Shown piece after piece: positions 4,173 to 29,502 of a DNA stretch of 29,502 bases. The stretch spans positions 248,001 to 277,502 of the forward strand of contig ML992512.1 of the NCBI GenBank assembly GCA_010093995.1, in the 5' to 3' direction. The notes under the pieces were generated by a model, which was given only the letters and a program-made list of their open reading frames with translations, searched no databases and was not told the origin of the DNA. The number at the start of each line of letters is the position of its first letter. The first letter of the stretch is position 1. Position numbers and translations under genes: made by a program. Source of the stretch: Elsinoe ampelina. Lineage: Eukaryota.

Positions 4173-5399
4173 ATGAACGGCTTCGCCGACCATGGACTGG
4201 ACGAGTCCGCCTTTGGGGACAAGGGAGGAATCTCCGTAAAGTCCTTCGATGCCTTCCCAAAGACAAAACCGACATACCAGCAAAAGACACACTCTGGAGG
4301 AGTATGGACCGTCGTCCTTATAGTGCTGTCATGTCTTCTGGGGTTCAGCGAGCTCCGACGATGGTGGGCAGGCCACACCAGTCATACTTTCTCCGTCGAG
4401 AAGGGCATCTCCCACGACCTACAGATCAATCTCGACATAGTCCTCGCCATGAAATGCAAGGATGTGCGGATAAATGTCCAGGATGCTTCAGGCGATCGCA
4501 TCTTGGCAGGCGAGACGCTTAATCGAGCTGCTACGCTATGGAACCACTGGTCAGGAAAGAAGGCAGGCCACCAGCTAGGATCCTCCCAGCAAGAACGCGA
4601 GAAGAACGACCATTCATCAGCCTACGAAGAGGAGGACGTACATGATTACCTTGGCTCAATCCGCGGCTATCGCGCCTTTGCCGACACTCCCCGTGTCCCT
4701 CGAGGCTTCACCCCCGACGCATGCCGCGTCTTCGGCACCCTCTCGGGCAACAAAGTCCAAGGAGACTTCCACATCACCGCGCGAGGCCACGGCTACATGG
4801 AATTCGGTCAACACCTCGACCACTCCGCCTTCAACTTCACCCACCAAATCAACGAACTCAGCTTCGGGCCCTTCTACCCCAACCTCCACAACCCCCTCGA
4901 CAACACCCGCGCCAGCACAGAAGAACACTTCTACAAATTCCAATACTACGTCAGCGTAGTCCCCACCGTCTACACAACAGACAGCAAAAACCTCGAACTC
5001 CTCCACCCCCGCGTCAGCCCCGGAAGCAGCGACGAAGCCCTCAAAGCCCTCCAACGCACATGGGCACTACGCAGCACCAACACCGTCTTCACCAACCAAT
5101 ACGCCGTGACGGAGCAGAGCCACGCCGTCAACGAGTACGCCGTCCCTGGCGTCTTTGTCAAGTACGACATCGAGCCCATCCTCCTCACCATCGCAGAAGA
5201 ATGGGACGGCTGGCTCGCGATGCTCGTCCGCATCGTAAACGTCGTCAGCGGTATCCTAGTCGCAGGAGGCTGGTTGTTCCAGATGAGTGATTGGGCCAAG
5301 GAAGCGATGCGCAAGGGGCGGCGGCGGACGGATAGTTTCGGGGGCGTGCTGCACGGGCGGAGCGCGAGTATGGAGGAGAAGAGGGTTTACACGGACTAG
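4173..5399 (+). CDS. ERV41: ER-Golgi COPII vesicle protein Erv41 (ERGIC family)
   Basis: Intronless 408 aa ORF. SFDAFPK motif then TM1, DASGD, CRVFG..NKVQGDFHI, FNFTHQINELSFG..NPLD, YYVSVVPT, PGVFVKYDIEPI, TM2 near the C-terminus. Confidence 0.9.
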   Translation: MNGFADHGLDESAFGDKGGISVKSFDAFPKTKPTYQQKTHSGGVWTVVLIVLSCLLGFSELRRWWAGHTSHTFSVEKGISHDLQINLDIVLAMKCKDVRINVQDASGDRILAGETLNRAATLWNHWSGKKAGHQLGSSQQEREKNDHSSAYEEEDVHDYLGSIRGYRAFADTPRVPRGFTPDACRVFGTLSGNKVQGDFHITARGHGYMEFGQHLDHSAFNFTHQINELSFGPFYPNLHNPLDNTRASTEEHFYKFQYYVSVVPTVYTTDSKNLELLHPRVSPGSSDEALKALQRTWALRSTNTVFTNQYAVTEQSHAVNEYAVPGVFVKYDIEPILLTIAEEWDGWLAMLVRIVNVVSGILVAGGWLFQMSDWAKEAMRKGRRRTDSFGGVLHGRSASMEEKRVYTD

Positions 5400-5581
5400 T
5401 CACGGCGTGGGAGGATGGGGTGGTGTATCATGTACAATCAATGTCTGGGTAGCATGTCAAGCATATCGCAATGGCAAGTTTGAGAACGAAAGTCCGGTTT
5501 CATCGTTCCCGTTGTTTCTTCGTCCGGGGGGGTATATCCTCCACCTCGGCTCATCCGTGGTGACACAGTCAGTCATCGATT

Positions 5582-8500
5582 TCATTCCTCCTCTCCTTCG
5601 GCGTCCTCCTCGCTTTCTCCCTCCGCGTCTTCCTCGCCTTCTGCATCTGGCACGAATTCATCTTCGTCATCCTCGTTATCGTCGTCCTTGACTTCCACCT
5701 CGACTTCCACCTCCATCGCATCATCCACCTCTCCCTCCGCGTCTTCTTCCTCTTCCTCTTCTTCGCCCTCTGCGTCGACCTCATTCGCCGCGCCGTCACC
5801 ACCATTCACCTTCCCTCCCCCACCGCCCTGCTCCTCTGGCTCATCCTGCTCCTCCTGCTCCTCCCCCTGCCCCTCCCCCTCGTCGACCGCCTCCTTCCTC
5901 CCCTCCTGCCTCCCATTAACCCTCGCCTCCCTCCCCAACCCCGACCTCCCCCTCAACCCCCCACCCGGCGTCCCTCCCCCACCCACCCCGCGATCCTTCC
6001 TCGGTCTCCCTCCACCAGGCGAATTATACCCCCTCCGCCCCCCGTAACTCCGTCTCGTACTCCTGCTCCCCAACGGCCTACCTCGCTTCTTCGGCGCTGC
6101 GCCCGGTATAGGCGGAAACACCTCGAAGCGCGAAGGCGGGATGTGGGACAGTCGGGTACTGCTCGTCGCGGATTCGGAGAAGAGCGTGTCGTAGCTTTGG
6201 CGGCGGGAGAAGGTGGTGATGCCGTTGGGGGTGGAGGGGTATTTGATGGGTGAGCGGGCGGGGGAAGAGGTGGATGGAGGGAGGGGTGGGGGTGGGAGGT
6301 GGGGCTTCTTGAGGGTGCGGGGGGAGACGGGGTCGGAGGGGAGGATTGATGTGCCGTTGGGGAGGGGTGGGGAGGGGTCGGTGTGGATGCCGTTGGTTTT
6401 CGGTTCGGGTGGGGGCATGTGGTTTGTTGGTTTGGGGTCTTCGGCGTCGGAAGGCTCGTCGCGGGGAGCTTTGGTTTGGATTGGGGCGTTGGCCTCTTCC
6501 CCGATGGCGAAGTAGGACGTGGGTCGGCCCATGACGTAGGGAGTCCAAATGAGCTTGGAACCGTCGATGGTCATGTGGTTCTTCTTGTCCTGCTTTTCGA
6601 CGTATTCTTTCATGTAGTCAAAGTCCAGACGGAAAGCGTAAGTGTGGGTGACAGGGTCGCGAACGAGGAATCGAAGAGCCTCAAGTGTAGAGATGATGTC
6701 GTCGGGAGTCATGCCAGTCTCTCGTGCAATGTTTGCGACCGATAACGGCTCTGCGATTTTGCTGGTGTCCTTGTATCGCAGCAATAGTTTGCAAAGAACA
6801 CCTCGCCAATACGATCGGTATGACACCAGACCCATGTCAGAGAGCGGCTTCTCCGGCGAACCAACGCGTTTCTCAACCTTAGTGAGCAGGTATGAGAACT
6901 CGATCATGGTGCGTCCAAAGCCTCTCCGCATATGTATTGGTAAGACCAGGATGCAGGAGACGTTGTTGCCTGGGTTGAGAAAGATGTTGGGATCAGATGT
7001 TGGTGGGTGTTCGTCTGCTCCTCCGACTGAGTGCACTGACCCGGCGAAAGACGGATTCGGCTGCTGACTTGGAGGCGGACCAAGTCCTCGTTTCTCCTTG
7101 GAGAAGTACCCAACAAAGTGGCAACCGAACTCGTCATTCTCGGTCATGACATAGAACAAGAATGGCTCAACGTCGTAGTAGAGGGTTTTCGAGCCGAGGA
7201 AGAGCTTTGCTAGTAGACAGAGGTTCTGGCAGTACAGAGGATTGCGTCGTCCATCCACTTCGAAGAACGACAGAGTAGTCGGCCGCTTGGTCTCTGGATT
7301 GATGATCGGACTGCGATAGATCTCATCGCCAGGTGGATGGCGTGCTGGGCATTTGAGCTTATGCCGCCACGCGACGAAGTCTGAGCTCATATACTTCAAG
7401 CAGAACTCGCAAATGTAGAGCGTTTTGTTGCGACTGTACTCCTCAGGATATGGAGCAGCGTGCCATGTGTCGATCTCGTTGTTGCCAAAATTGATACACT
7501 TGATCTTACTAGGAGGACCGAGTGTCTTGGGTCGAGCCGGCGTCTCAGATGCTTGAGCTTCAGTCTTGCGGCGCCAGTCTTCCTCAGCCTTCCGCCTTGC
7601 CGCTTCGAAGACTTCACGGTCTTCTTGTTGAGGATATGTACGGTCTGTCTTGGCTTCTGAATCTGTCAGGATCCCGCCATATGGCTTGCCTTTCAGCTCA
7701 TCCACCTCGCGATCTGGAAAGGCGTAAAACGGATTCGAATACATGGTCGTCGCTATCGCTGGATAGTGTGCTTGCGGTTCCGGTGGCGGCGCAGCTGCAG
7801 CTGCAGCTTGCTGGTTCTGACGCGCCCTGCGCTCTCGATCTCGTTCACGTCTTCGTTGCTTGCGCTGTGCATTCTTCTCGACGCCGTCTAGCGCTGCAGC
7901 GCTGATAGGTATCGCAATGATAATTGTCTTGGCCTCCATATCTTTCGTGATGATCCGTGCTGATGTTGACGTTGATTTATGCTGACGTCGGGGCCTACCC
8001 GAGCCTTCACCATCTACACCGTTCGCTGTGGAAGGCCGAGAGGACTGCGCACGAGCAACACGTACGTTCTCCTCGACAACCGATGCTGTGGATGTCCTTC
8101 GGCGTTTGAGATCGCCAGATGCATCCTCGTCGTGTTCTTCGGTCGATTTCCGCTTCCTAAGTGCTCGTGAGCCATCCATGGGATCCTCGTCCAATATGAG
8201 GTTGTTAAAGACGGAATGAGACCCCGGTTTGATGCCACCTCGTGCTGCCGGGAGGAGGTCACGTGCCAACTTCGGCGCTGAGGCACTCCGGAGCGCAGCA
8301 TTTGGATCGATCTCCTTGACAATCGGGCCTTCTTCATCTGGCTCGAGGCCGTTTTCGATGCAGGTCGGACACCGCCATCGCGCGATATCTAGATGCATTG
8401 GTTAATGTGCGTTGGTGGGATATTTGACGGGACTTGACTCTTACCATCTTCGGCGCCCAACGCTTCTGCGTCTCTAGCGCATTGTCGATGAGCTGTGTAG

Positions 8501-17207: not shown

Positions 17208-18707
17208 CTATCGAGTATCCATGCAAGCAACTGTTCCATCTGCTTGGACCGACCCATACCTTCGACATATCATCCAATTCCGCATCTCGTTGATCATGAT
17301 TATGATCTCCAGCAGCGACAGACCTGTGCCGACTCTGCCGCTGATAGACCGTTCCAGGCGCCTTGATAGAGCATCTCTCTTGTTAAACTCACGGCAACAA
17401 GGGGCATGCAGCACAGTACCTCGGCTACCATCCCTGTCGTGGTCGGGAATGAAGTCATGAACGTCGCGTATCCTGACCACACTGCTATCTTGCAGGACAT
17501 CGAGATCGAAGCTCATGTTGAAGGGTCCGCGTATCTGAAGGTGCTTAAATTCGATGGCTAAAGCAGACGGTGATGCTTTGAGCCAATTGACGGTATCATC
17601 ACCAAGGAGGCTCCTTATCGACCATGGCTTGAGCTTGCGATGAAAGTTAAAGATGTTCTCGAACAGAGGTATACTGAAACGGTGCTCTACTGGGTGAATG
17701 TAGATGACCAGTCGCCAAGCATCGAAGATGTTTGATCTGTCCTTGTTTCGCACAAAGGGAATGCGTAGCAACGACGGGGGGTCGAAGTGGTGAAGTGATT
17801 TTGCTTTCCTGCCGTCAACTTGTGGGTCGATAGAATTCGAGACTAGAGGTAGAGCTGCATAAATGTGTCCTCGTACTTCTGGTGGCAGGTCGAAGAAGGA
17901 TAGGGACTGAGGGTTGCAGCCGCGGGTAAGGATTACGGAAGGCTGTGACGAGATCGTTGTCTTGCCGCGGTGGTGACGGCGTCTCTCGGCTTGTTTCTCC
18001 ATCTTAGCAGCGAGTTTGGCAAAGTCTTGCATATCGGCTGCTAGTTTCATGCTGAAATCCACAAGGATTTGTAGCTCTGTTGTGGTTATGCCATAACCAT
18101 TCCTGGCTGCGATGGACGCGGACAAACAGGAGCATAGACGACCCAACGCTTGCTCTCTATACGGGAGCCAGCCGACCAGTTCAAGTTGAGCTTGTAGCTT
18201 TTGCCATAGCGGCAAGTCCTCGCATCCTGCCAGGAAGGGAGTGTATGTGGTTCGGGGGGGCCCATCAATCGGGGCTGCTATATCAAAGCACACAAATGTA
18301 CATCCGTCGAGTCCAGAGAATCTGATGTGAGGGAATTCGATTGGTGGACAGCCGAGAAGGGGCTGTCGCAGGAAGTCGAAGTAATCAGGAAAGAAATGAT
18401 GCCTAGCATCCGTGATCCTCTTGCTCGTGACATACCTTCTGGAGTGCTCAAAGTGGGGTCGAACAGCTGAGAAGGCTAGTTTCTGATCGAATTTGATGAC
18501 TGCGGCAACGTGGAAGAGTGGCAACTCATGCAGAAACGAGGTTCTGGTCTTGAGACTCCGAGGTAAGTCGTCAAATACCGCCAGAATGAGCTGGTAAATC
18601 CTGGACCGGACTTGTGGAGGCAGGTCGAAGAAGGATGTCGACGGCTGACGATGGATACGTGCATTCCGTGTGAGAAGCTGCCCATCGCTGGCTAGCATGA
18701 GGGGCAT
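17208..18707 (-). CDS. Hypothetical protein with two tandem ~250 aa units, each starting with an F-box-like motif
   Basis: 499-codon ORF. SFFDLPPQVRSRIY and SFFDLPPEVRGHIY; also paired IEFPHIRFSG/IEFKHLQIRG and LSASIAARNGYGITTTEL/LERSISGRVGTGLSLLEI. Confidence 0.75.
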   Translation of the reverse strand: MPLMLASDGQLLTRNARIHRQPSTSFFDLPPQVRSRIYQLILAVFDDLPRSLKTRTSFLHELPLFHVAAVIKFDQKLAFSAVRPHFEHSRRYVTSKRITDARHHFFPDYFDFLRQPLLGCPPIEFPHIRFSGLDGCTFVCFDIAAPIDGPPRTTYTPFLAGCEDLPLWQKLQAQLELVGWLPYREQALGRLCSCLSASIAARNGYGITTTELQILVDFSMKLAADMQDFAKLAAKMEKQAERRRHHRGKTTISSQPSVILTRGCNPQSLSFFDLPPEVRGHIYAALPLVSNSIDPQVDGRKAKSLHHFDPPSLLRIPFVRNKDRSNIFDAWRLVIYIHPVEHRFSIPLFENIFNFHRKLKPWSIRSLLGDDTVNWLKASPSALAIEFKHLQIRGPFNMSFDLDVLQDSSVVRIRDVHDFIPDHDRDGSRGTVLHAPCCREFNKRDALSRRLERSISGRVGTGLSLLEIIIMINEMRNWMICRRYGSVQADGTVACMDTR

Positions 18708-20463: not shown

Positions 20464-21606
20464 ATGCCGCTGTCCCTCTTCACCATCATCCAGGCAGAGG
20501 ACGATCTCCTCGCCCGCGCAGTGGAGGGGTTTGAGCATATGACCCGATCTACACGAGACGTCATGCCTAATTCCGAAGCCCGGCAGGTCCGGCGCGACAC
20601 TCAAAGGAACGACTCCCGTCAACTCCATGTCGACACTGCGAACCATAATAATAACAGGCACTCGGTGCCTCAAGTAGCGTTGCCTGCCCGCGTCGCTCGT
20701 CCTCTCACTCCTCGACGTTCCACCGCTCCAGAATTACCCAGCCCCACGCCCACCCACCCCAACGCTGCTCTCGCATATCAAGTGGCACAACCCCGACAGC
20801 GAACCAGATCTCCATATTCACGAAGTCACTTACGATCACGATCAGCCAATACCCCAAACATGGCAGAGCCCATGGCTAGGGCGCATTCACTGCCTGCACG
20901 ACCTGCTTCGTCTTCGTCTCTTTCTCCGGCCTTGGGATCCACAAGCCCTTTGCTACGATCACCAATCCGCTCAGGAAGTCCTTTCAGACCGTCTTCACCT
21001 CATGAGCTCCACTCAGCTAATGTCAATTCACCATCCTTTTACGACGGTGGGTTTGAGACCATTTCTGAGCATGCAGAACTTGATCTATCACGGTCATCCT
21101 TCGATCGCAGCATCTCCATGAATAGTCTCAACTCTTCACGACCAGTTGGGCCTCGACGACAACGCCAGTCTTCTCCCAACAGGTCACCTCTCACCTCGTC
21201 TGCGTCTTCACCCGCTCTCTCTGCTCAGAGATTCGCAAACGAGTCTTACCCAGCTCTTCACCACTACGGGAGCACGTCCTCCTTTACTTCTCTGCCGAGC
21301 ATGCCCTCCACTCCTTCTACCAACCGTTCGCGCTCGCCCTCCATCTCTTCCCTGGAAACTATCGAAGATGCACCCGACCTTGAGTACGAGGCAATCGAAG
21401 CAGACCGCATGGAAATGCTCAAAGAAGAAGCCGAAGGGGAAGAAGCTGAAGAGACCCCTCGCCGAAGGGGCGCCAGCCTCGACATCCCTTCGCGTCCCAT
21501 CGGCTTCGGCTTCACGAAGGGTCAGGCAAGGAAGAGATGGAGTGTCTGCGGGGGAGAGAGAAGGGCGGACCTTGACTTGGAGACAATCTGGGAAGACCAG
21601 AATTAG
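20464..21606 (+). CDS. Ser/Pro/Arg-rich, largely disordered fungal hypothetical protein
   Basis: 380-codon ORF with motifs RSPYSRSHLRSRS, PSTPSTNRSRSPSISSLETIEDAPD and C-terminal KRWSVCGGERRADLDLETIWED, which resemble a conserved Pezizomycotina hypothetical family (from recall). Start codon uncertain. Confidence 0.8.
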   Translation: MPLSLFTIIQAEDDLLARAVEGFEHMTRSTRDVMPNSEARQVRRDTQRNDSRQLHVDTANHNNNRHSVPQVALPARVARPLTPRRSTAPELPSPTPTHPNAALAYQVAQPRQRTRSPYSRSHLRSRSANTPNMAEPMARAHSLPARPASSSSLSPALGSTSPLLRSPIRSGSPFRPSSPHELHSANVNSPSFYDGGFETISEHAELDLSRSSFDRSISMNSLNSSRPVGPRRQRQSSPNRSPLTSSASSPALSAQRFANESYPALHHYGSTSSFTSLPSMPSTPSTNRSRSPSISSLETIEDAPDLEYEAIEADRMEMLKEEAEGEEAEETPRRRGASLDIPSRPIGFGFTKGQARKRWSVCGGERRADLDLETIWEDQN

Positions 21607-22070
21607 AAAACGACCAGGCGGAATACACGCATGGACAGGTAAGACTGGGTTTGCATTGATTGCACAGCGGGAACGGGAAGCGTTTACGCATATGGGAAGG
21701 GAAATGAACGGAATGATACCCCAGGGAGGATAGAAGAAAGACGATAGATCACGACCACCAGACGTGCGCGTCTGAATGAGCAAATTCGTTTTCACTTTTC
21801 AATCCTTGTCCACAATCATGCGTCGTGCGTGCCACCGAGCAAAACATAGGTTGTTTCTGTACAGGGTCTTAATAAGCACCTCTCGCAAGCAGATATGGTA
21901 TCAGCGCGCCGTCAGAACTCCTCCAATGCAATCCACCTTCGTCCCAACATTCATCATTCATGACCTGCCCTTGGTCCTCCCATCTTCCCCTCGACCAAGT
22001 CCAACGACCCATGATATGCTCGCTCATCAATCATGATCCGGACCCCACCCCTCCACCTTCCACGAGCCCC

Positions 22071-24884
22071 TTAATGCGCCCCTCTAGCCTGCTTAGCCTA
22101 CTCAAGTCAGCCAACACTCCCCACCCACCCTCAACAACAACTCACCTTCATCAACTCGATCCTCGCCTTCAAATTCTGCGTCACCTCCGCCGCCCTCCTC
22201 CAACTCTCCTGCCCCTCCTGTCCCTGCCCTTGCGCAAGTCCACTCCCACTCCCACTCCTCGCCGCCCCACCAATCACACCCGCCCTACTACTCCCTTCCC
22301 TCTCCCTACCTCCCACCCCCTGGTCCCGCACAAACCCACTCAACGGCCTCGCAGTCGGCCGCACAAACCCAGCAGGACTCTGCCTGCCCCCCGGCCCCGA
22401 TTCCTCCACAGGCGACTTGACCCTCTCCCGCTCCCCGTTCACACCACCGCTCTTCAACCGCTGAGGCAGCATCAATTCACGGGGAAGGGAGTTCTCCTTC
22501 CCCTCCTCGTCAGGACTGCGCACGTCACGGCGGAAACCATTCACTCCACCCCCTGGGCCCGAACCCGCTCCTCCCAAGACACCGTTCCCCGTCCCGTTGC
22601 CCAAGGGGGGACTCACCCCCCCTCTATCCCCTCTCCCCTCCCCTCCCATCCCCGATCCCCTCCCGTCTCCCGTCCCGGAGATGCTCAACTGCCGCTTCAA
22701 CCTCTCCACCTCCCTCCCCAGCCCGTGACACCTCTCCTCGGCATCGTCCAGATCCCCCCTCGCGCGCACAAGCTGCGTCTCCTTCGCCTTGACGCTCAGC
22801 ACGTCCCGGGTGTGGTCTTCTATCAGCTGCGCGTTCTGGTTCTGGAGCTCGTGGATCTGCGACGACAGCCGCATCTTGTCCGTCCGTAGGTCGGCGTTTT
22901 GTTGCCGTAGCAGCTCCGTCTCGGCGCGCAGGTCGGCGAGTTCGGCCCGTTCGGCTGAGGAGAGGGAGGAGGGTTGGGGTGTCGCGCCTCGTGGGGAGGC
23001 AGGGGGCGAGGTGATGCTGGGTTTGCTGAGGGCGCGGGCGGTGAGGCCTCGGCCTGGGGTGGGGAGGCCGCGGGGTTGGGGTGGGGGGTCGTCGGTGAGA
23101 GCGGCGGTGGGTTTGCGGGCTGGAGAGGCGAGGACGCCGGGGCGGGTGAGGCCGGGCTTTTTGAGGCCGCCGCCGGGTGGGGGGAGACCTCGCGCGGTGG
23201 TGGTGGGTTTAGCTGGGGCGCGGGCGGTGGGGCGTGGAGCGAGGTCTTCGGCTGGGGAGGGGGCGCGAGCGGGCGCTGGTTTCTTGACGGCGCCGGCGGG
23301 GCGTTTGGTCGCTGGTCGCTTGCCGGCGGCGGCTGGTGCGGCGGCTGGTTTCGGGGGTGGTGCGGCTTTAGGCTTCCATTTCGCTCGCACTTCGGCCGAG
23401 TCGCGGTACTCTATGATTTTGGCTTTCCGGATGTCGTCGACGCCTTCGAGGTGGGCGAGCATGTTGCGGTCGGTCATGATCTTCCAGAGAACACCGAGAC
23501 ATTCTGCTGAGGCGTTACGGGTTGGTTCTTGCGAGTCGGAGAGGAGTGCTTTGGCTGCGTCGGCGATGAGCTTGACTTCGGACATTTGAGGGGCTTCCCG
23601 TGTAGTCTTGAGTGCCCGAGTGAGGAACTTGGTCGATTCCAACTTGACCAGAGGATTCTTGTGCTTCAGGAACTCGAGTGTCTCCTCCAGTACATCTGTC
23701 AGACCGGTGGCGAGGAAGACGGCATCGCATGCTCCAGCTAACGCATCAGTGACAGACTGCTTCTTCTCCTTGAATCGCTCGAGCATGGGTGAGAGAATCA
23801 TGTTCCGATACTTGGTGAACTTCTTCCTCAGACCCTTCGCGATGCACTCGATCGAGTTTGCTGCGACCTGCACAACTTGAATGTTTGCATCCTTCATGCT
23901 CTTTGCACATCCTCGAATGATGTTGTCGAATGGTCCGTCCTCCATCGCAGGCACATTGACCGCAGCGTAGAGCTCATCCAGAACATCCTTGCGATCTTTC
24001 CATTTTGATGATGCCAATCGCTCGTCGAGGTCCTTGGGTACCTTTGCAAATACATCGACTGCCATGTACTCTGGTTCCAAGTCAATCTCCGGCTCCTCAG
24101 CGTCATCAGCCCCAACTTCCTCATCGCCAGCTCCTGCGGCTGGCTTGGACTCCTCAATTGCTTGCTGTGACCGTAGTAATCTCTCCTGCTTCGGTGATGG
24201 TTCATCCTTGACCTTCTCGAAAAGCTTCTCCAAGTCCGTTTGTTGTACTGGTTTCAACTCGCCCCAAAAGAGCGGCTTCATAGCATCCTTCAGCCATCTG
24301 TACAGCTCAACTGTAAGATTCTGCGCCTCGGCGCGTACGTTCTTGTCCGCATGTCCGTAGACCTTTGGCAATTGCTTGATGACTGGCTTCGGCTCTATGG
24401 TCTTACACCCATACGCGTGGAAGAGCGAGGTGAGCGCCGAGAGTGTCGCAGCGATAACCTTTGGTTGTTTATGGGATAGCAGAGGAATGAGCTCGTCGAT
24501 GACCGGGTCTGCCTTGTCCAGCTCAACATACAGCATCAGCGCTTCGAGTGCAGATGCTTTGGCAGCTGGTCTACCAGTCAATCCCTTCTCCACGATCGGC
24601 GTGATGGTCTCGTTCCTCGTCCGCGTACATCCTGGCTTTCCAGCAATCTCCAGAAACGCGCACAGTGCTGCCAGACCTTCTTGTTGCGCTGCCACGTTCG
24701 AGTCTGCAGCGGCGCCTTTCCACAGGCTGGAATCCGACACAAAATCTCTCACAATCGAGTCCGTCTCTTGCGCCGTCTTGAATTCCTTTGCCGCCGTCTC
24801 GTAGGCTTCCTTGCGCACTTTCCATACTTTGTGTGTCCACCGGTCTGTCAAAGGGAGACTGCTGAAATCATCCTCTTCCGCCAT
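22071..24884 (-). CDS. STU2: XMAP215/Dis1-family microtubule polymerase (Stu2/Alp14/AlpA); exons 24884-22146, 22097-22071
   Basis: TOG1 (HKVWKVRKEAY, DSNVAAQQ) and TOG2 (SSKWKDRK, KDANIQVV, ERFKEKK), basic Pro-rich linker, coiled coil. Terminal intron GTGAGT..GCTGAC..TAG (22145-22098) gives the end ELMK-AKQARGAH*. Confidence 0.93.
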
Positions 24885-27047: not shown

Positions 27048-27400
27048 GCACCAACGACTCGAGACCAGTACATAGACTTTGTAATGTTGTCATGACCGAG
27101 AAATGACCGATACCAAGACGCGAAGAGATTATACTTGCTTGGACGGACAAGCATGTCAATCAAGACTTGAGAACAAGAATCGCAGACAAGCGTGATCGGC
27201 TGCCGGAGACCCTCGAAGCATGCCAGAATTTGAGAGAGCACATGGCGAACATGTGGATCGTGGCATGATCTACACGTCAAACTCAGAGACACGTTCGAAG
27301 CATGCACGATGTGTGATCGATGTTCCATTCGGCAAAAGCGAAAACAGTCGATATCGGCCGACGTCATGCGGCTGTTTTCTGCGGCGGCGGCGGCGGAGGC

Positions 27401-27542
27401 TGTTGTAACTGGCAAATCGGATCGAGAGACGTGTATTTCATTCAGAGAGTTACAATAACCGATTTATCTACTGTGCGTGCGCTGACTCATTAGTGCTAGT
27501 TCTTTAGTACCAGAGAAGCTATACTAGCCTTCTATTACAATA
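27401..27542 (-). repeat. 3' LTR (142 bp)
   Basis: Plus strand begins TGTTGTAA (27401) and ends TTACAATA (27535-27542; TTACAACA with one CpA>TpA change): an 8-bp terminal inverted repeat directly abutting the PPT. Confidence 0.82.
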
Positions 27543-27551
27543 CTCCCCCTC
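27543..27551 (-). other. Polypurine tract (GAGGGGGAG)
   Basis: Plus-strand CTCCCCCTC lies immediately internal to the LTR, matching the typical Copia AGGGGGAG-TGT junction. Confidence 0.82.
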
Positions 27552-27903
27552 TAGTATAGATTATTAAAGCTAGAGAACTGTCCTATTATATATAAGTAAA
27601 GTAATTAGCTTATTACTTTATCTCTTTATAATTGCTTATAATTATTAGTGTTAGCTAATTATTAGTGAGAATTTACTATTAGTTTAGCTTATAATTACTA
27701 GCAAGGTTAGTAACTATTAATAATAGCTAGGTAGCTATTGTCTCTATTATTCTATATAAATAAATTAGCTTATAAATCTTAATAAGGGAGATATAAGTAT
27801 CTAGCTAACTTCTTTATAGTTTCTCTTTCCTTTATTATACTTATAATAATAGCTTACTATTTTATATTTTACTTTTATACCTTCTATAGTATAAACTAAC
27901 TCC

Positions 27904-29286
27904 TTATAGTATAAGTACTACTACTTAGCTAGGTATTAGTAGTATTACTACTAGTACTAGAGTACTAGGTAGTTCGCTAGGTAGTAGAGGTAGAGGATAT
28001 AATCTTTCTTAGTCTAGAGATTTAACTAGTTCTAAGATAAGAGAGTAGAGTACTATAAGAGCTATTACTAGACTAAATACTCTTAGTATATTATCTCTTA
28101 TATAGTCTAAAAAGTAGTACTAACTTGTTATAGTTAGGACTAAATAGGCTCTTACTTAAGAGCTTACTATAAGCATCTAGAACGACCTTACTAGCCTTAG
28201 GGACCTTAGATACTACAACTATAACTCACTATACTTAGTCTTTAGGTCCTCTACTATTTAGGCTTTTAGTACTAGTAACCTAGATCTTTTAGTTATAGCT
28301 ACTATCTAGGTAAAGAACCTAACTAAGACAATTAACTTAACTAGTTCTCTAACTTATATAGCTACCTTAATAGGAACTAGTACTACTAGAAGAGTTATTT
28401 ACTATAGTACTAACTACTATACTAAGTATTAGAGCTCTACTCTAGGTAATAATAGTAGCCTTAGTAAAGCTAGTAAGTTTAAGTAGTGTATTATAGTCTC
28501 TAGCTAGTTCTATAGTGCCTATACTAACTATACCTATAGTCTATAGTATAAGACTTACTCTCTTATCTAGTATACTTTAACTCTAAGGCCTCTAAAAGAA
28601 ACTCTAAGTAGTTTAAGGCCTATTACCTAACCTATTCTATATAGCCTAATATACCTACTAACTAAGCTTCTAAGGTCTTTCTCTTTTAGTAACACTTTAC
28701 CTTAAAGGTTCTTACTAAGGCCTACTTCTTCTTATAGTAGGCCTACTAATATTATTAATAAGTCCTTAGTATATTCTAACTTATGCTACTTTATTATAGT
28801 CCCTATAGACTTTACTAATCTAGTAAATTCTATATAGGCTAAGCTCTAGACTCTATAGGTTATTATAGCTAGGTTTACTATAAGTATAGCTAAGGTTATA
28901 TCTAGTAAGAGAGGTAGTCTTCTAACTATTTATACCTTTACTATATAAGGTTTAGCTAGTAGTATAGGTTATATAAGAAATATATCTAAATCTTCCCTAA
29001 GAAATAAAAGATTAAGGGCTAACTCTAATATATTAATAAGTAGTAGATCTTATACTAGCTCTAAGAGCTTTAAGAGGATAAGGACTTCTCTAAGGAAGTA
29101 ATTAGTAAAGTATAATAAGTAGTTAGTAGTATAGGATAGTAGTTAGTATTAAGTAGTAGATATAGCTTAGGTATAAGTAGCTAGTAATAAGGTTATAATA
29201 GCTTTTCCTTTCTCTCTTTTTAATGTTAAAGTAACTTACTTTAAGTTTTTAGACAAATAAGATAGCTTAATAAGTAGTAGTAGCAT
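27904..29286 (-). pseudogene. RIP-mutated extra ORF (~460 codons) between pol and PPT
   Basis: ATG at 29286. One frame gives protein-like segments along its length: KREKGKA, E*VLYYRL*V*LV*AL*N*LE, VEDLKTKYSEL*L*YLRS and a Pro/Ala tail after CpA restoration. Stops are TAA/TAG, revertible to CAA/CAG/TGG. 3' end uncertain (27860-27904). Confidence 0.65.
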
Positions 29287-29371
29287 AAATAATATACTTA
29301 AAATAATAATATAAATAAAATCTAAATAAGTGTATAGTATAGTAATATACTAAATAATTAGCTTTTGCTAA

Positions 29372-29502
29372 TTAGTTAAGAATCTTATTAAGAGACTTAA
29401 GCTTTATAAGTATATTAGCTAACTACTAAGTTATATTAATATACTTAAGCTTAATTACTCTAAGTTTATACTACTCTCTATAGTAATAATTCCTTAAATT
29501 AA
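29372..29502 (-). pseudogene. pol: C-terminus of Copia pol (RNase H), RIP-mutated
   Basis: Frame from 29500 reads NLRNYYYRE*YKLRVIKLKYINIT**LANILIK. Reverting only CpA/TpG transitions gives DLRNHYxREQ..GVI.L.YIDTTQQLADILTK, the Ty1/Copia RNase H signature (IDxRxHxxRE...QxADxLTK). Confidence 0.85.

Follow-up and report, generated by a model that had tools for sequence, protein, structure and literature searches.

This locus raises the question of whether a fungal Ty1/Copia-type retrotransposon once carried a further gene behind pol. It lies in Elsinoe ampelina, which belongs to a genus of scab fungi, within a stretch of 29,502 nucleotides (nt) of contig ML992512.1 (positions 248,001 to 277,502, forward strand), which was analyzed at its full length and is referred to here as the window; all coordinates count from its first letter. 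The last part of the window, 27401–29502, is the 3′ end, on the minus strand, of a Ty1/Copia-type long terminal repeat (LTR) retrotransposon killed by repeat-induced point mutation (RIP). Its pol and its polypurine tract (PPT) are separated by 1819 nt, in line with the unusually long gap at a Copia-type 3′ end described in an earlier note on this DNA, which had drawn a sense open reading frame (ORF) at this env position. Here, we found that the core of this gap, 27899–29072, is best read as the remains of a once protein-coding stretch that keeps a single unbroken phase and is dead in this copy. The best explanation, and on balance a probable one, is an additional coding module (additional ORF, aORF) at the position between pol and the 3′ LTR, present in at least a sub-family of the Copia-type element and destroyed by RIP.

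A coding signal in RIP-saturated DNA

RIP is marked by a raised TpA/ApT and a lowered (CpA+TpG)/(ApC+GpT) ratio relative to unique DNA. Over 27540–29502 these indices were 2.27 and 0.09, respectively, compared with 0.55 and 1.24 in 1–27000, and the GC content was 26–30% versus ~53% elsewhere in the window. Just 8 CA, 12 TG and 2 CG dinucleotides survived in the 1963 nt of this last part, and a comparison of contigs showed that the differences between copies of the element are nearly all transitions. The last ~2 kb of the window is in a state of saturating RIP.

With regard to stop codons, the sense frame proposed earlier, which runs on the minus strand from an ATG at 29286 to 27904, comprised 461 codons with 35 stops, all of them TAA or TAG (7.6 per 100 codons), as had been counted approximately beforehand. 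Over the same span, the six frames held 35, 94, 44, 91, 30 and 64 stops. Dinucleotide-preserving shuffles (n = 1000) gave 60.9 ± 6.8 stops per frame, with 40 as the lowest number in any frame and none of the 1000 at or below 35, so that the stop depletion of the proposed frame exceeds chance. Five Pfam-verified host genes were also transformed in silico by changing CA, TG and CG to TA; these RIP-simulated genes carried 6.1–8.8 stops per 100 codons, kept 52–56% of their residues and had a GC content of 25–31%, compared with 29% in the region. Among the 390 codons of the core, stops numbered 31 in the proposed sense frame, 22 in a frame on the plus strand and 39 in the frame of pol, i.e., a density of 5.6–10% in the three candidate frames.

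The distribution of TA dinucleotides over the three phases of the gap was 61/86/161, and that of purine content 0.62/0.46/0.39. When the sequence was reduced to purines and pyrimidines (R/Y), the maximum-scoring periodic segment was 27899–29072 (~1.17 kb), with a score of 24.1 versus 2.5 and 3.5 in the other phases, and the phase spread was matched by none of 2000 shuffles. The same phase was kept in nine of the ten 120-nt blocks over 27841–29040, the exception being block 28561–28680, while the spacers on either side of the core (~300 and ~350 nt) were without a comparable coding signal. Constant phase, stop depletion and a RIP-like stop density together indicate that the core was once coding, without a frameshift.

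The earlier description of a protein-like stretch without any frameshift thus applies, as regards phase, to 27899–29072 and not to the first ~70 codons, which, together with the ATG at 29286 and the peptide KREKGKA, fall outside the periodic core. KREKGKA, formerly regarded as a feature of the protein, is the translation of a 20-nt purine run (29202–29221). The ATG was indeed found 86 nt after the apparent pol stop (TAA, 29374–29372), close to the ~85 nt first given; because this DNA is RIP-saturated (12 TG in 1963 nt), its survival is no evidence of a start.

Anatomy of the 3′ end of the element

The element comprises the following features within the window:

29372–29502, minus strand: probable C-terminal 42 codons of pol, i.e., the tail of ribonuclease H (RNase H), with the motif ...LANILIK... 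and the TAA at 29374–29372; the window end cuts pol
29073–29371, minus strand: upstream spacer with weak or no periodicity, containing the ATG (29286–29284) and the 20-nt purine run (29202–29221)
27899–29072, either strand: coding-like core with constant three-base periodicity and stop depletion, for which three frames compete on two strands
27553–27898, minus strand: AT-rich spacer upstream of the PPT, without periodicity in the periodicity scans
27543–27552, minus strand: PPT AGAGGGGGAG, the same tract being present in other copies
27401–27542, minus strand: 3′ LTR of 142 bp with TG..CA ends and a 9-bp terminal inverted repeat, its repeat edge at 27400

The minus-strand frame from 29500 gave 42 codons including ...LANILIK..., with the TAA nine codons after this motif. 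ANxxIK corresponds to ADxxTK, the motif found at the end of Copia RNase H (Donnart et al. 2017, PMC5445492), the two differences being D>N (GAT>AAT, preceded by T) and T>I (ACA>ATA); either change takes one RIP-type transition in the preferred TpG/CpA context. The estimated chance of matching so short a motif is ~1 in 10. No match was found in Pfam for the 42-codon tail, and the assignment to pol rests on the short motif because Pfam does not cover this tail. The TAA itself may be RIP-made, since the pol frame is open for 34 further codons beyond it.

Evidence from other copies was obtained from contigs of two runs of one sample (X1 and X2) aligned on the window, in which summed contig depth does not equal copy number. 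The PPT and the LTR named in the earlier note were both confirmed, the LTR measuring 142 bp, and their junction was seen in other copies, in which AGAGGGGGAG runs into the un-mutated beginning of the LTR (loose end at 27528, agreement 0.97); in the copy of the window, the initial TG of the LTR is RIP-mutated. Contigs from the unique flank stopped at 27428–27434, five contigs had differing sequence before 27400, and summed depth rose from 201 in the single-copy flank to ~206,000 over the LTR, giving a sharp repeat edge at 27400. The 3′ LTR of the element is inside the window, and the 5′ end of the element outside. Transition-blind local alignment found no second LTR copy in the gap between pol and PPT or elsewhere in the window. 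A candidate second LTR after the purine run at 29202–29221 was rejected, as it scored 51.5 and 53 versus a null median of 52.5.

No part of the element is more abundant in the contigs than the LTR, whose summed depth is ~1000 times that of the single-copy flank. The distal ~100 bp of the LTR keep intact CpA and TpG here, RIP being saturating up to ~27500, and the short LTR seems largely to escape RIP. The LTR end abuts unique DNA with a (GCC)n/(CCG)n triplet run (27380–27400), and the presumed 5-bp target duplication is 27396–27400.

The core within the repeated unit

Other copies covered the core at 86–88% identity in contigs of 399–713 nt, and at 97–99% in contigs of 150–165 nt with 5–8 times the single-copy depth; all copies seen carry mutations. 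The downstream boundary of the core was bridged by one contig (27784–27933, ~6 times the single-copy depth) and the upstream boundary by one diverged contig (28685–29172). Since both core junctions recur in other, differently mutated copies, the core was amplified together with the sequence on either side rather than inserted in this copy alone.

Summed depth in the core (2.2k–6k over 27983–29074) exceeded the 201 of the single-copy flank. Outside the core, it amounted to 17k–91k over 29073–29371, 36k–91k over 29166–29502 and ~100k over 27528–27709, and within the downstream spacer it climbed from ~12k to ~110k toward the PPT. The core may be confined to a sub-family of the element, for which this profile is a hint rather than a finding.

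Two further observations were made on the core contigs. Those at 27784–27933, 28229–28381 and 28469–28633 differed by one to five letters from the copy in the window and had 5–8 times the single-copy depth; either saturating RIP makes copies converge, or mutated copies were duplicated afterwards. In one diverged copy, 67 nt at 28618–28684 were replaced by 76 unrelated letters at the site of the periodicity break (block 28561–28680), and a depth spike to 36k was observed in the same place (28620–28710). Within the core, the stretch 28618–28710 may represent a short segment that is prone to indels or repeated separately.

Reading direction and frame

TA is self-complementary, and hence a frame that is poor in TA at codon positions 1–2 has a partner on the opposite strand with identical TA positions. 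The low number of stops in the plus-strand frame (codons 27905+3k) is therefore not independent evidence, because its TA positions are common to the proposed sense frame. Three frames were viable, namely the proposed sense frame, the plus-strand frame and the pol frame, and all models agreed in placing the other three 38–77 nats lower. For comparison of the frames we employed a 3-periodic Markov model trained on the RIP-simulated host genes, which in cross-validation was right for 7, 8 and 7 of 9 host pieces at orders 2, 3 and 4, respectively, and a RIP-invariant R/Y model of orders 2–6, right for 7–8 of 10 host pieces. An independent and identically distributed (iid) codon model had little power for frame assignment even on host genes, and none was shown on them by an R/Y test that looked at codon position 2 for helix or strand periodicity. 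The 20 listed differences between copies followed RIP context rather than selection, with no signal resembling a nonsynonymous-to-synonymous (dN/dS) ratio. Three symmetry-related frames thus compete, and the reading direction is not recoverable from this copy.

Taken singly, each of the three readings is unlikely, with the plus-strand frame slightly ahead of the proposed sense frame and the continuation of pol placed last. An antisense accessory ORF, read from the 3′ LTR side toward pol, has the fewest stops of the six frames (30 over the span of the proposed frame, 22 of 390 codons in the core), a purine pattern (0.62/0.46/0.39) typical of host genes and a TA phase (0.132/0.187/0.349) that falls inside the host range at each of the three positions. 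Correlations of 0.81–0.94 link its six-frame stop profile to four of the five host genes, it comes first in the R/Y model at orders 2–6, where the pol frame follows 4–9 nats behind, and antisense aORFs between pol and the 3′ LTR are on record, including that of Boty of Botrytis (PMC7264820, PMC8365987). However, the same frame falls 9–42 nats behind the proposed sense frame in the RIP-simulated Markov model, its surviving G+C clusters at codon position 2 (0.41 versus 0.25 in simulated host genes), serine plus threonine (S+T) make up 27% and glutamate (E) 0.7% of its residues, it had no match in the word-indexed protein search or in PDB, and its stop paucity is mathematically bound to that of the proposed sense frame. 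That sense frame, an ORF of ~460 codons from the ATG at 29286 to 27904 in a frame other than that of pol, encoding an env-like or other accessory protein, is somewhat more doubtful. It leads in the RIP-simulated Markov model by 9.4, 17.5 and 34.5 nats (orders 2, 3 and 4) and in sliding windows over 28151–29050, its 7.6 stops per 100 codons lie inside the 6.1–8.8 of the simulated host genes, its surviving G+C peaks at codon position 1 as in those genes, and its content of glutamate plus aspartate (E+D) is host-like. Conversely, its purine content by codon position is 0.54/0.38/0.61, compared with 0.60–0.65 at position 1 in the five Pfam-verified host genes; its TA per codon is 0.132/0.349/0.184, the (2,3) and (3,1) values being outside the range of all seven host genes; and it stands 12–15 nats behind the plus-strand frame in the R/Y model, with the worst six-frame stop-profile fit for four of the five host genes. 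In addition, its first ~70 codons lie outside the core, KREKGKA is a purine run, the surviving ATG is uninformative as a start, and full phmmer gave 0 relatives. As regards a C-terminal extension of the polyprotein, in which the TAA at 29372 would be RIP-made and the pol frame would run on through the core, the periodic phase of the core is that of pol (one in three by accident), and just nine codons separate the ADxxTK-type motif from the TAA. Its purine pattern (0.61/0.54/0.38) is of the usual kind, its TA phase (0.185/0.133/0.35) resembles that of the 42 pol codons (~0.20/0.16/0.34) and of the host ERV gene, with which its stop profile also correlates at 0.95–0.96, and it leads the sliding windows over 27851–28300. 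Against this continuation stand the heaviest stop load of the three (44 stops, and 10% in the core, versus a maximum of 8.8% in simulated host genes), the 120-nt block 29041–29160 without periodicity and a second or third place in both Markov models; as a weak further point, a search among longer proteins yielded no Copia polyprotein extended in this way.

Based on these results, the ORF as drawn in the earlier note, opening at the ATG of 29286 in one sense frame, was not established: the plus-strand frame has 30 stops and the pol frame 44, the tests split, and the ATG is outside the core. The wider proposal of an extra gene at the env position was borne out to the extent that a once-coding segment is common to several copies; the strand, frame and start assigned to it were not.

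Weighing of a possible additional gene

Several observations weigh against an additional gene of the element. Concerning the copies, the summed depth of the core is 10–50 times below that of both flanks, and most copies may be without it; in each run, one weak contig connects 27845 directly with 29144 and so leaves out 1298 nt (27846–29143), with a short side of 27–29 nt; and the window holds one copy of the element and 42 pol codons only. Homology searches were likewise negative: there was no match in Pfam for the six frames with stops read as Q/W, none in the word-indexed protein search of the proposed sense, plus-strand and pol frames (for pol, among longer proteins), 0 matches in a full phmmer search of the proposed sense frame against 1.84 billion representatives, and a best match of only E=0.23 for two frames in PDB. 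Furthermore, the frame tests disagree, with the RIP-simulated Markov model choosing the proposed sense frame, the R/Y model the plus-strand frame, and the stop profile the plus-strand frame for four of five host genes and the pol frame for one; and composition is odd in all three readings, with leucine plus proline (L+P) at 28% or S+T at ~27%.

Additional searches gave no match in Rfam, none in viral contigs (by pattern and by protein), and none in metagenome contigs, either for the pattern of the PPT/LTR junction or for 28 bases of the LTR end. The homology negatives are weak and exclude close relatives and strong known domains only, because RIP changed ~45% of the residues. As simulated RIP inflates leucine, isoleucine and valine (L/I/V) and keeps 52–56% of residues, an env-like, suppressor or other domain is not readable from this copy.

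A serious rival, although on the whole an improbable one, is a co-amplified passenger, i.e., a fragment of a captured host gene or another transposon relic that came to lie in the 3′ untranslated region of a single master copy and spread with it in a minority of copies. Such a passenger would fit the depth of 2.2k–6k in the core versus 36k–206k in the flanks and the LTR, the one contig per run that joins 27845 to 29144 by skipping 1298 nt, and the coincidence of the core boundaries (27899 and 29072) with the low-depth bins 27892–29074; transduced aORFs, moreover, occur in one or few copies (PMC7264820). Against it, the core stands at ~10–30 times the single-copy depth with both junctions shared, the summed depth gives no copy number and the very AT-rich flanks may attract loosely placed short contigs, and Pfam revealed no transposase, reverse transcriptase (RT) or host-domain signal. 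The joint between 27845 and 29144, with its short side of 27–29 nt, has no shared letters, so that no target duplication was seen. By comparison, a sequence that was never coding, namely a long untranslated region with a periodicity that arose by accident or from a degenerate 3n tandem repeat, is disfavoured and highly improbable. The lack of a homologue and of an open frame, and the odd composition in every frame, are what it would predict; yet the observed stop depletion arose in 0 of 1000 shuffles and the phase spread in 0 of 2000, the phase is constant over ~1.2 kb, a repeat scan gave short repeats at chance level only, and the stop density equals that of RIP-simulated real genes.

Genomic setting

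The host genes in the window encode a MYST acetyltransferase, a Stu2/XMAP215 TOG protein, an ERGIC/Erv protein and a WD40 protein, and four exact ORF products of the window cluster at 90% identity with Elsinoe batatas and E. fawcettii proteins. Pfam domains are absent from two long ORFs, 17211–18707 (minus strand) and 20464–21603 (plus strand), which match predicted Elsinoe proteins exactly or nearly so; the protein matched by the latter is named 'Basic proline-rich protein'. Purine at codon position 1 is unusually low in both (0.52 and 0.48, respectively), which shows that real genes of odd composition occur in this genome. Two peaks of GC content (0.61–0.69) with a strong strand skew were observed at 5000–6500 and 22000–23500, in or beside the genes for the MYST acetyltransferase and the Stu2/TOG protein, and probably reflect coding stretches of low complexity.

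Discussion

An additional coding module of the element, the explanation that we prefer, would account for the locus as follows. Some 1.8 kb between the RNase H tail and the PPT with its 142-bp LTR would have carried a coding module of ~1.17 kb in unbroken phase, which would have travelled within the repeated unit of the element. When live, the module may have been expressed in one of two ways, in the sense direction through splicing or read-through, or in antisense through transcription that enters at the 3′ LTR side, the models for this being the aORFs of plant elements and brtn of the Botrytis element Boty. RIP would then have killed the module in this copy.

In filamentous ascomycetes, fungal Ty1/Copia elements of the GalEa-like and FunCo1 clades are described as having one large ORF, a length of 5.4–7.0 kb and LTRs of 138–311 bp, and RIP-affected Copia copies with a GC content of 20–40% occur in several species (PMC5445492). 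The Elsinoe element resembles these in its LTR, which is bordered by TGT...CA and, at 142 bp, lies within 138–311 bp, in a putative RNase H end with an ADxxTK-like motif and in its RIP-affected, AT-rich copies; this likeness is drawn from the 3′ end alone, RT, integrase and the primer-binding site or hairpin being beyond the window. It differs from them in that the part of PMC5445492 considered here makes no mention of an extra coding segment after pol.

According to PMC7264820, aORFs between pol and the 3′ LTR are either sense (ENV-like) or antisense (Grande, RIRE2, Retand), and are expected to be present in all or most copies of a family; the non-plant case it cites is Boty of Botrytis. The extra antisense gene of Boty, a Ty3/Gypsy element of Botrytis cinerea, is brtn (Zhao et al. 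2011, as cited in PMC8365987 and PMC7264820). Boty is, like the Elsinoe element, a fungal LTR retrotransposon with a gene beyond gag-pol, and the plus-strand reading of the core would give the same antisense arrangement. Unlike Boty, which is a Gypsy element, the Elsinoe element is Copia-type and represented here by a RIP-dead copy, and the two are likened by arrangement, not by sequence. The Tat-type Gypsy elements of plants (Grande, RIRE2, Retand, PvRetro13; PMC7264820) similarly have antisense aORFs that lie between pol and the 3′ LTR and contain no known domain. Those elements are plant Gypsy, whereas ours is fungal and Copia-type, with antisense as one of three readings.

The sense ENV-like aORFs of the plant elements Athila and Bagy2 share with the core a position between pol and the PPT or 3′ LTR and a length of a few hundred codons, and Sirevirus-type Copia elements of plants also carry sense ENV-like aORFs. 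The differences lie in the host kingdom, in the absence of any sequence similarity in our searches and in sense being one of three readings here.

A more specific proposal, which we put forward tentatively and hold to be possible rather than probable, is that a Copia-type family of Elsinoe has an accessory gene of its own, with ~390 codons between RNase H and PPT, likeliest antisense like brtn and otherwise sense, and encoding a protein without detectable relatives; it would be the first for fungal Ty1/Copia. In the literature located on fungal Copia elements with an additional ORF and on Elsinoe retrotransposons, as far as these sources were covered, no such element is described. Plants and insects provide well-documented cases of additional genes in LTR retrotransposons, and for fungi the literature found, within the same coverage, deals with the Gypsy element Boty only.

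The locus also calls for caution when degenerate elements are annotated from single copies, since in RIP-saturated DNA every stop-poor frame has a stop-poor partner on the opposite strand, and an ORF is therefore not assignable from one copy. If the additional module is real, a Copia-type fungal element that carries it would widen the range of additional genes in LTR retrotransposons, and it would suggest a candidate means by which fungal elements handle their host, be it through silencing, targeting or nuclear entry.

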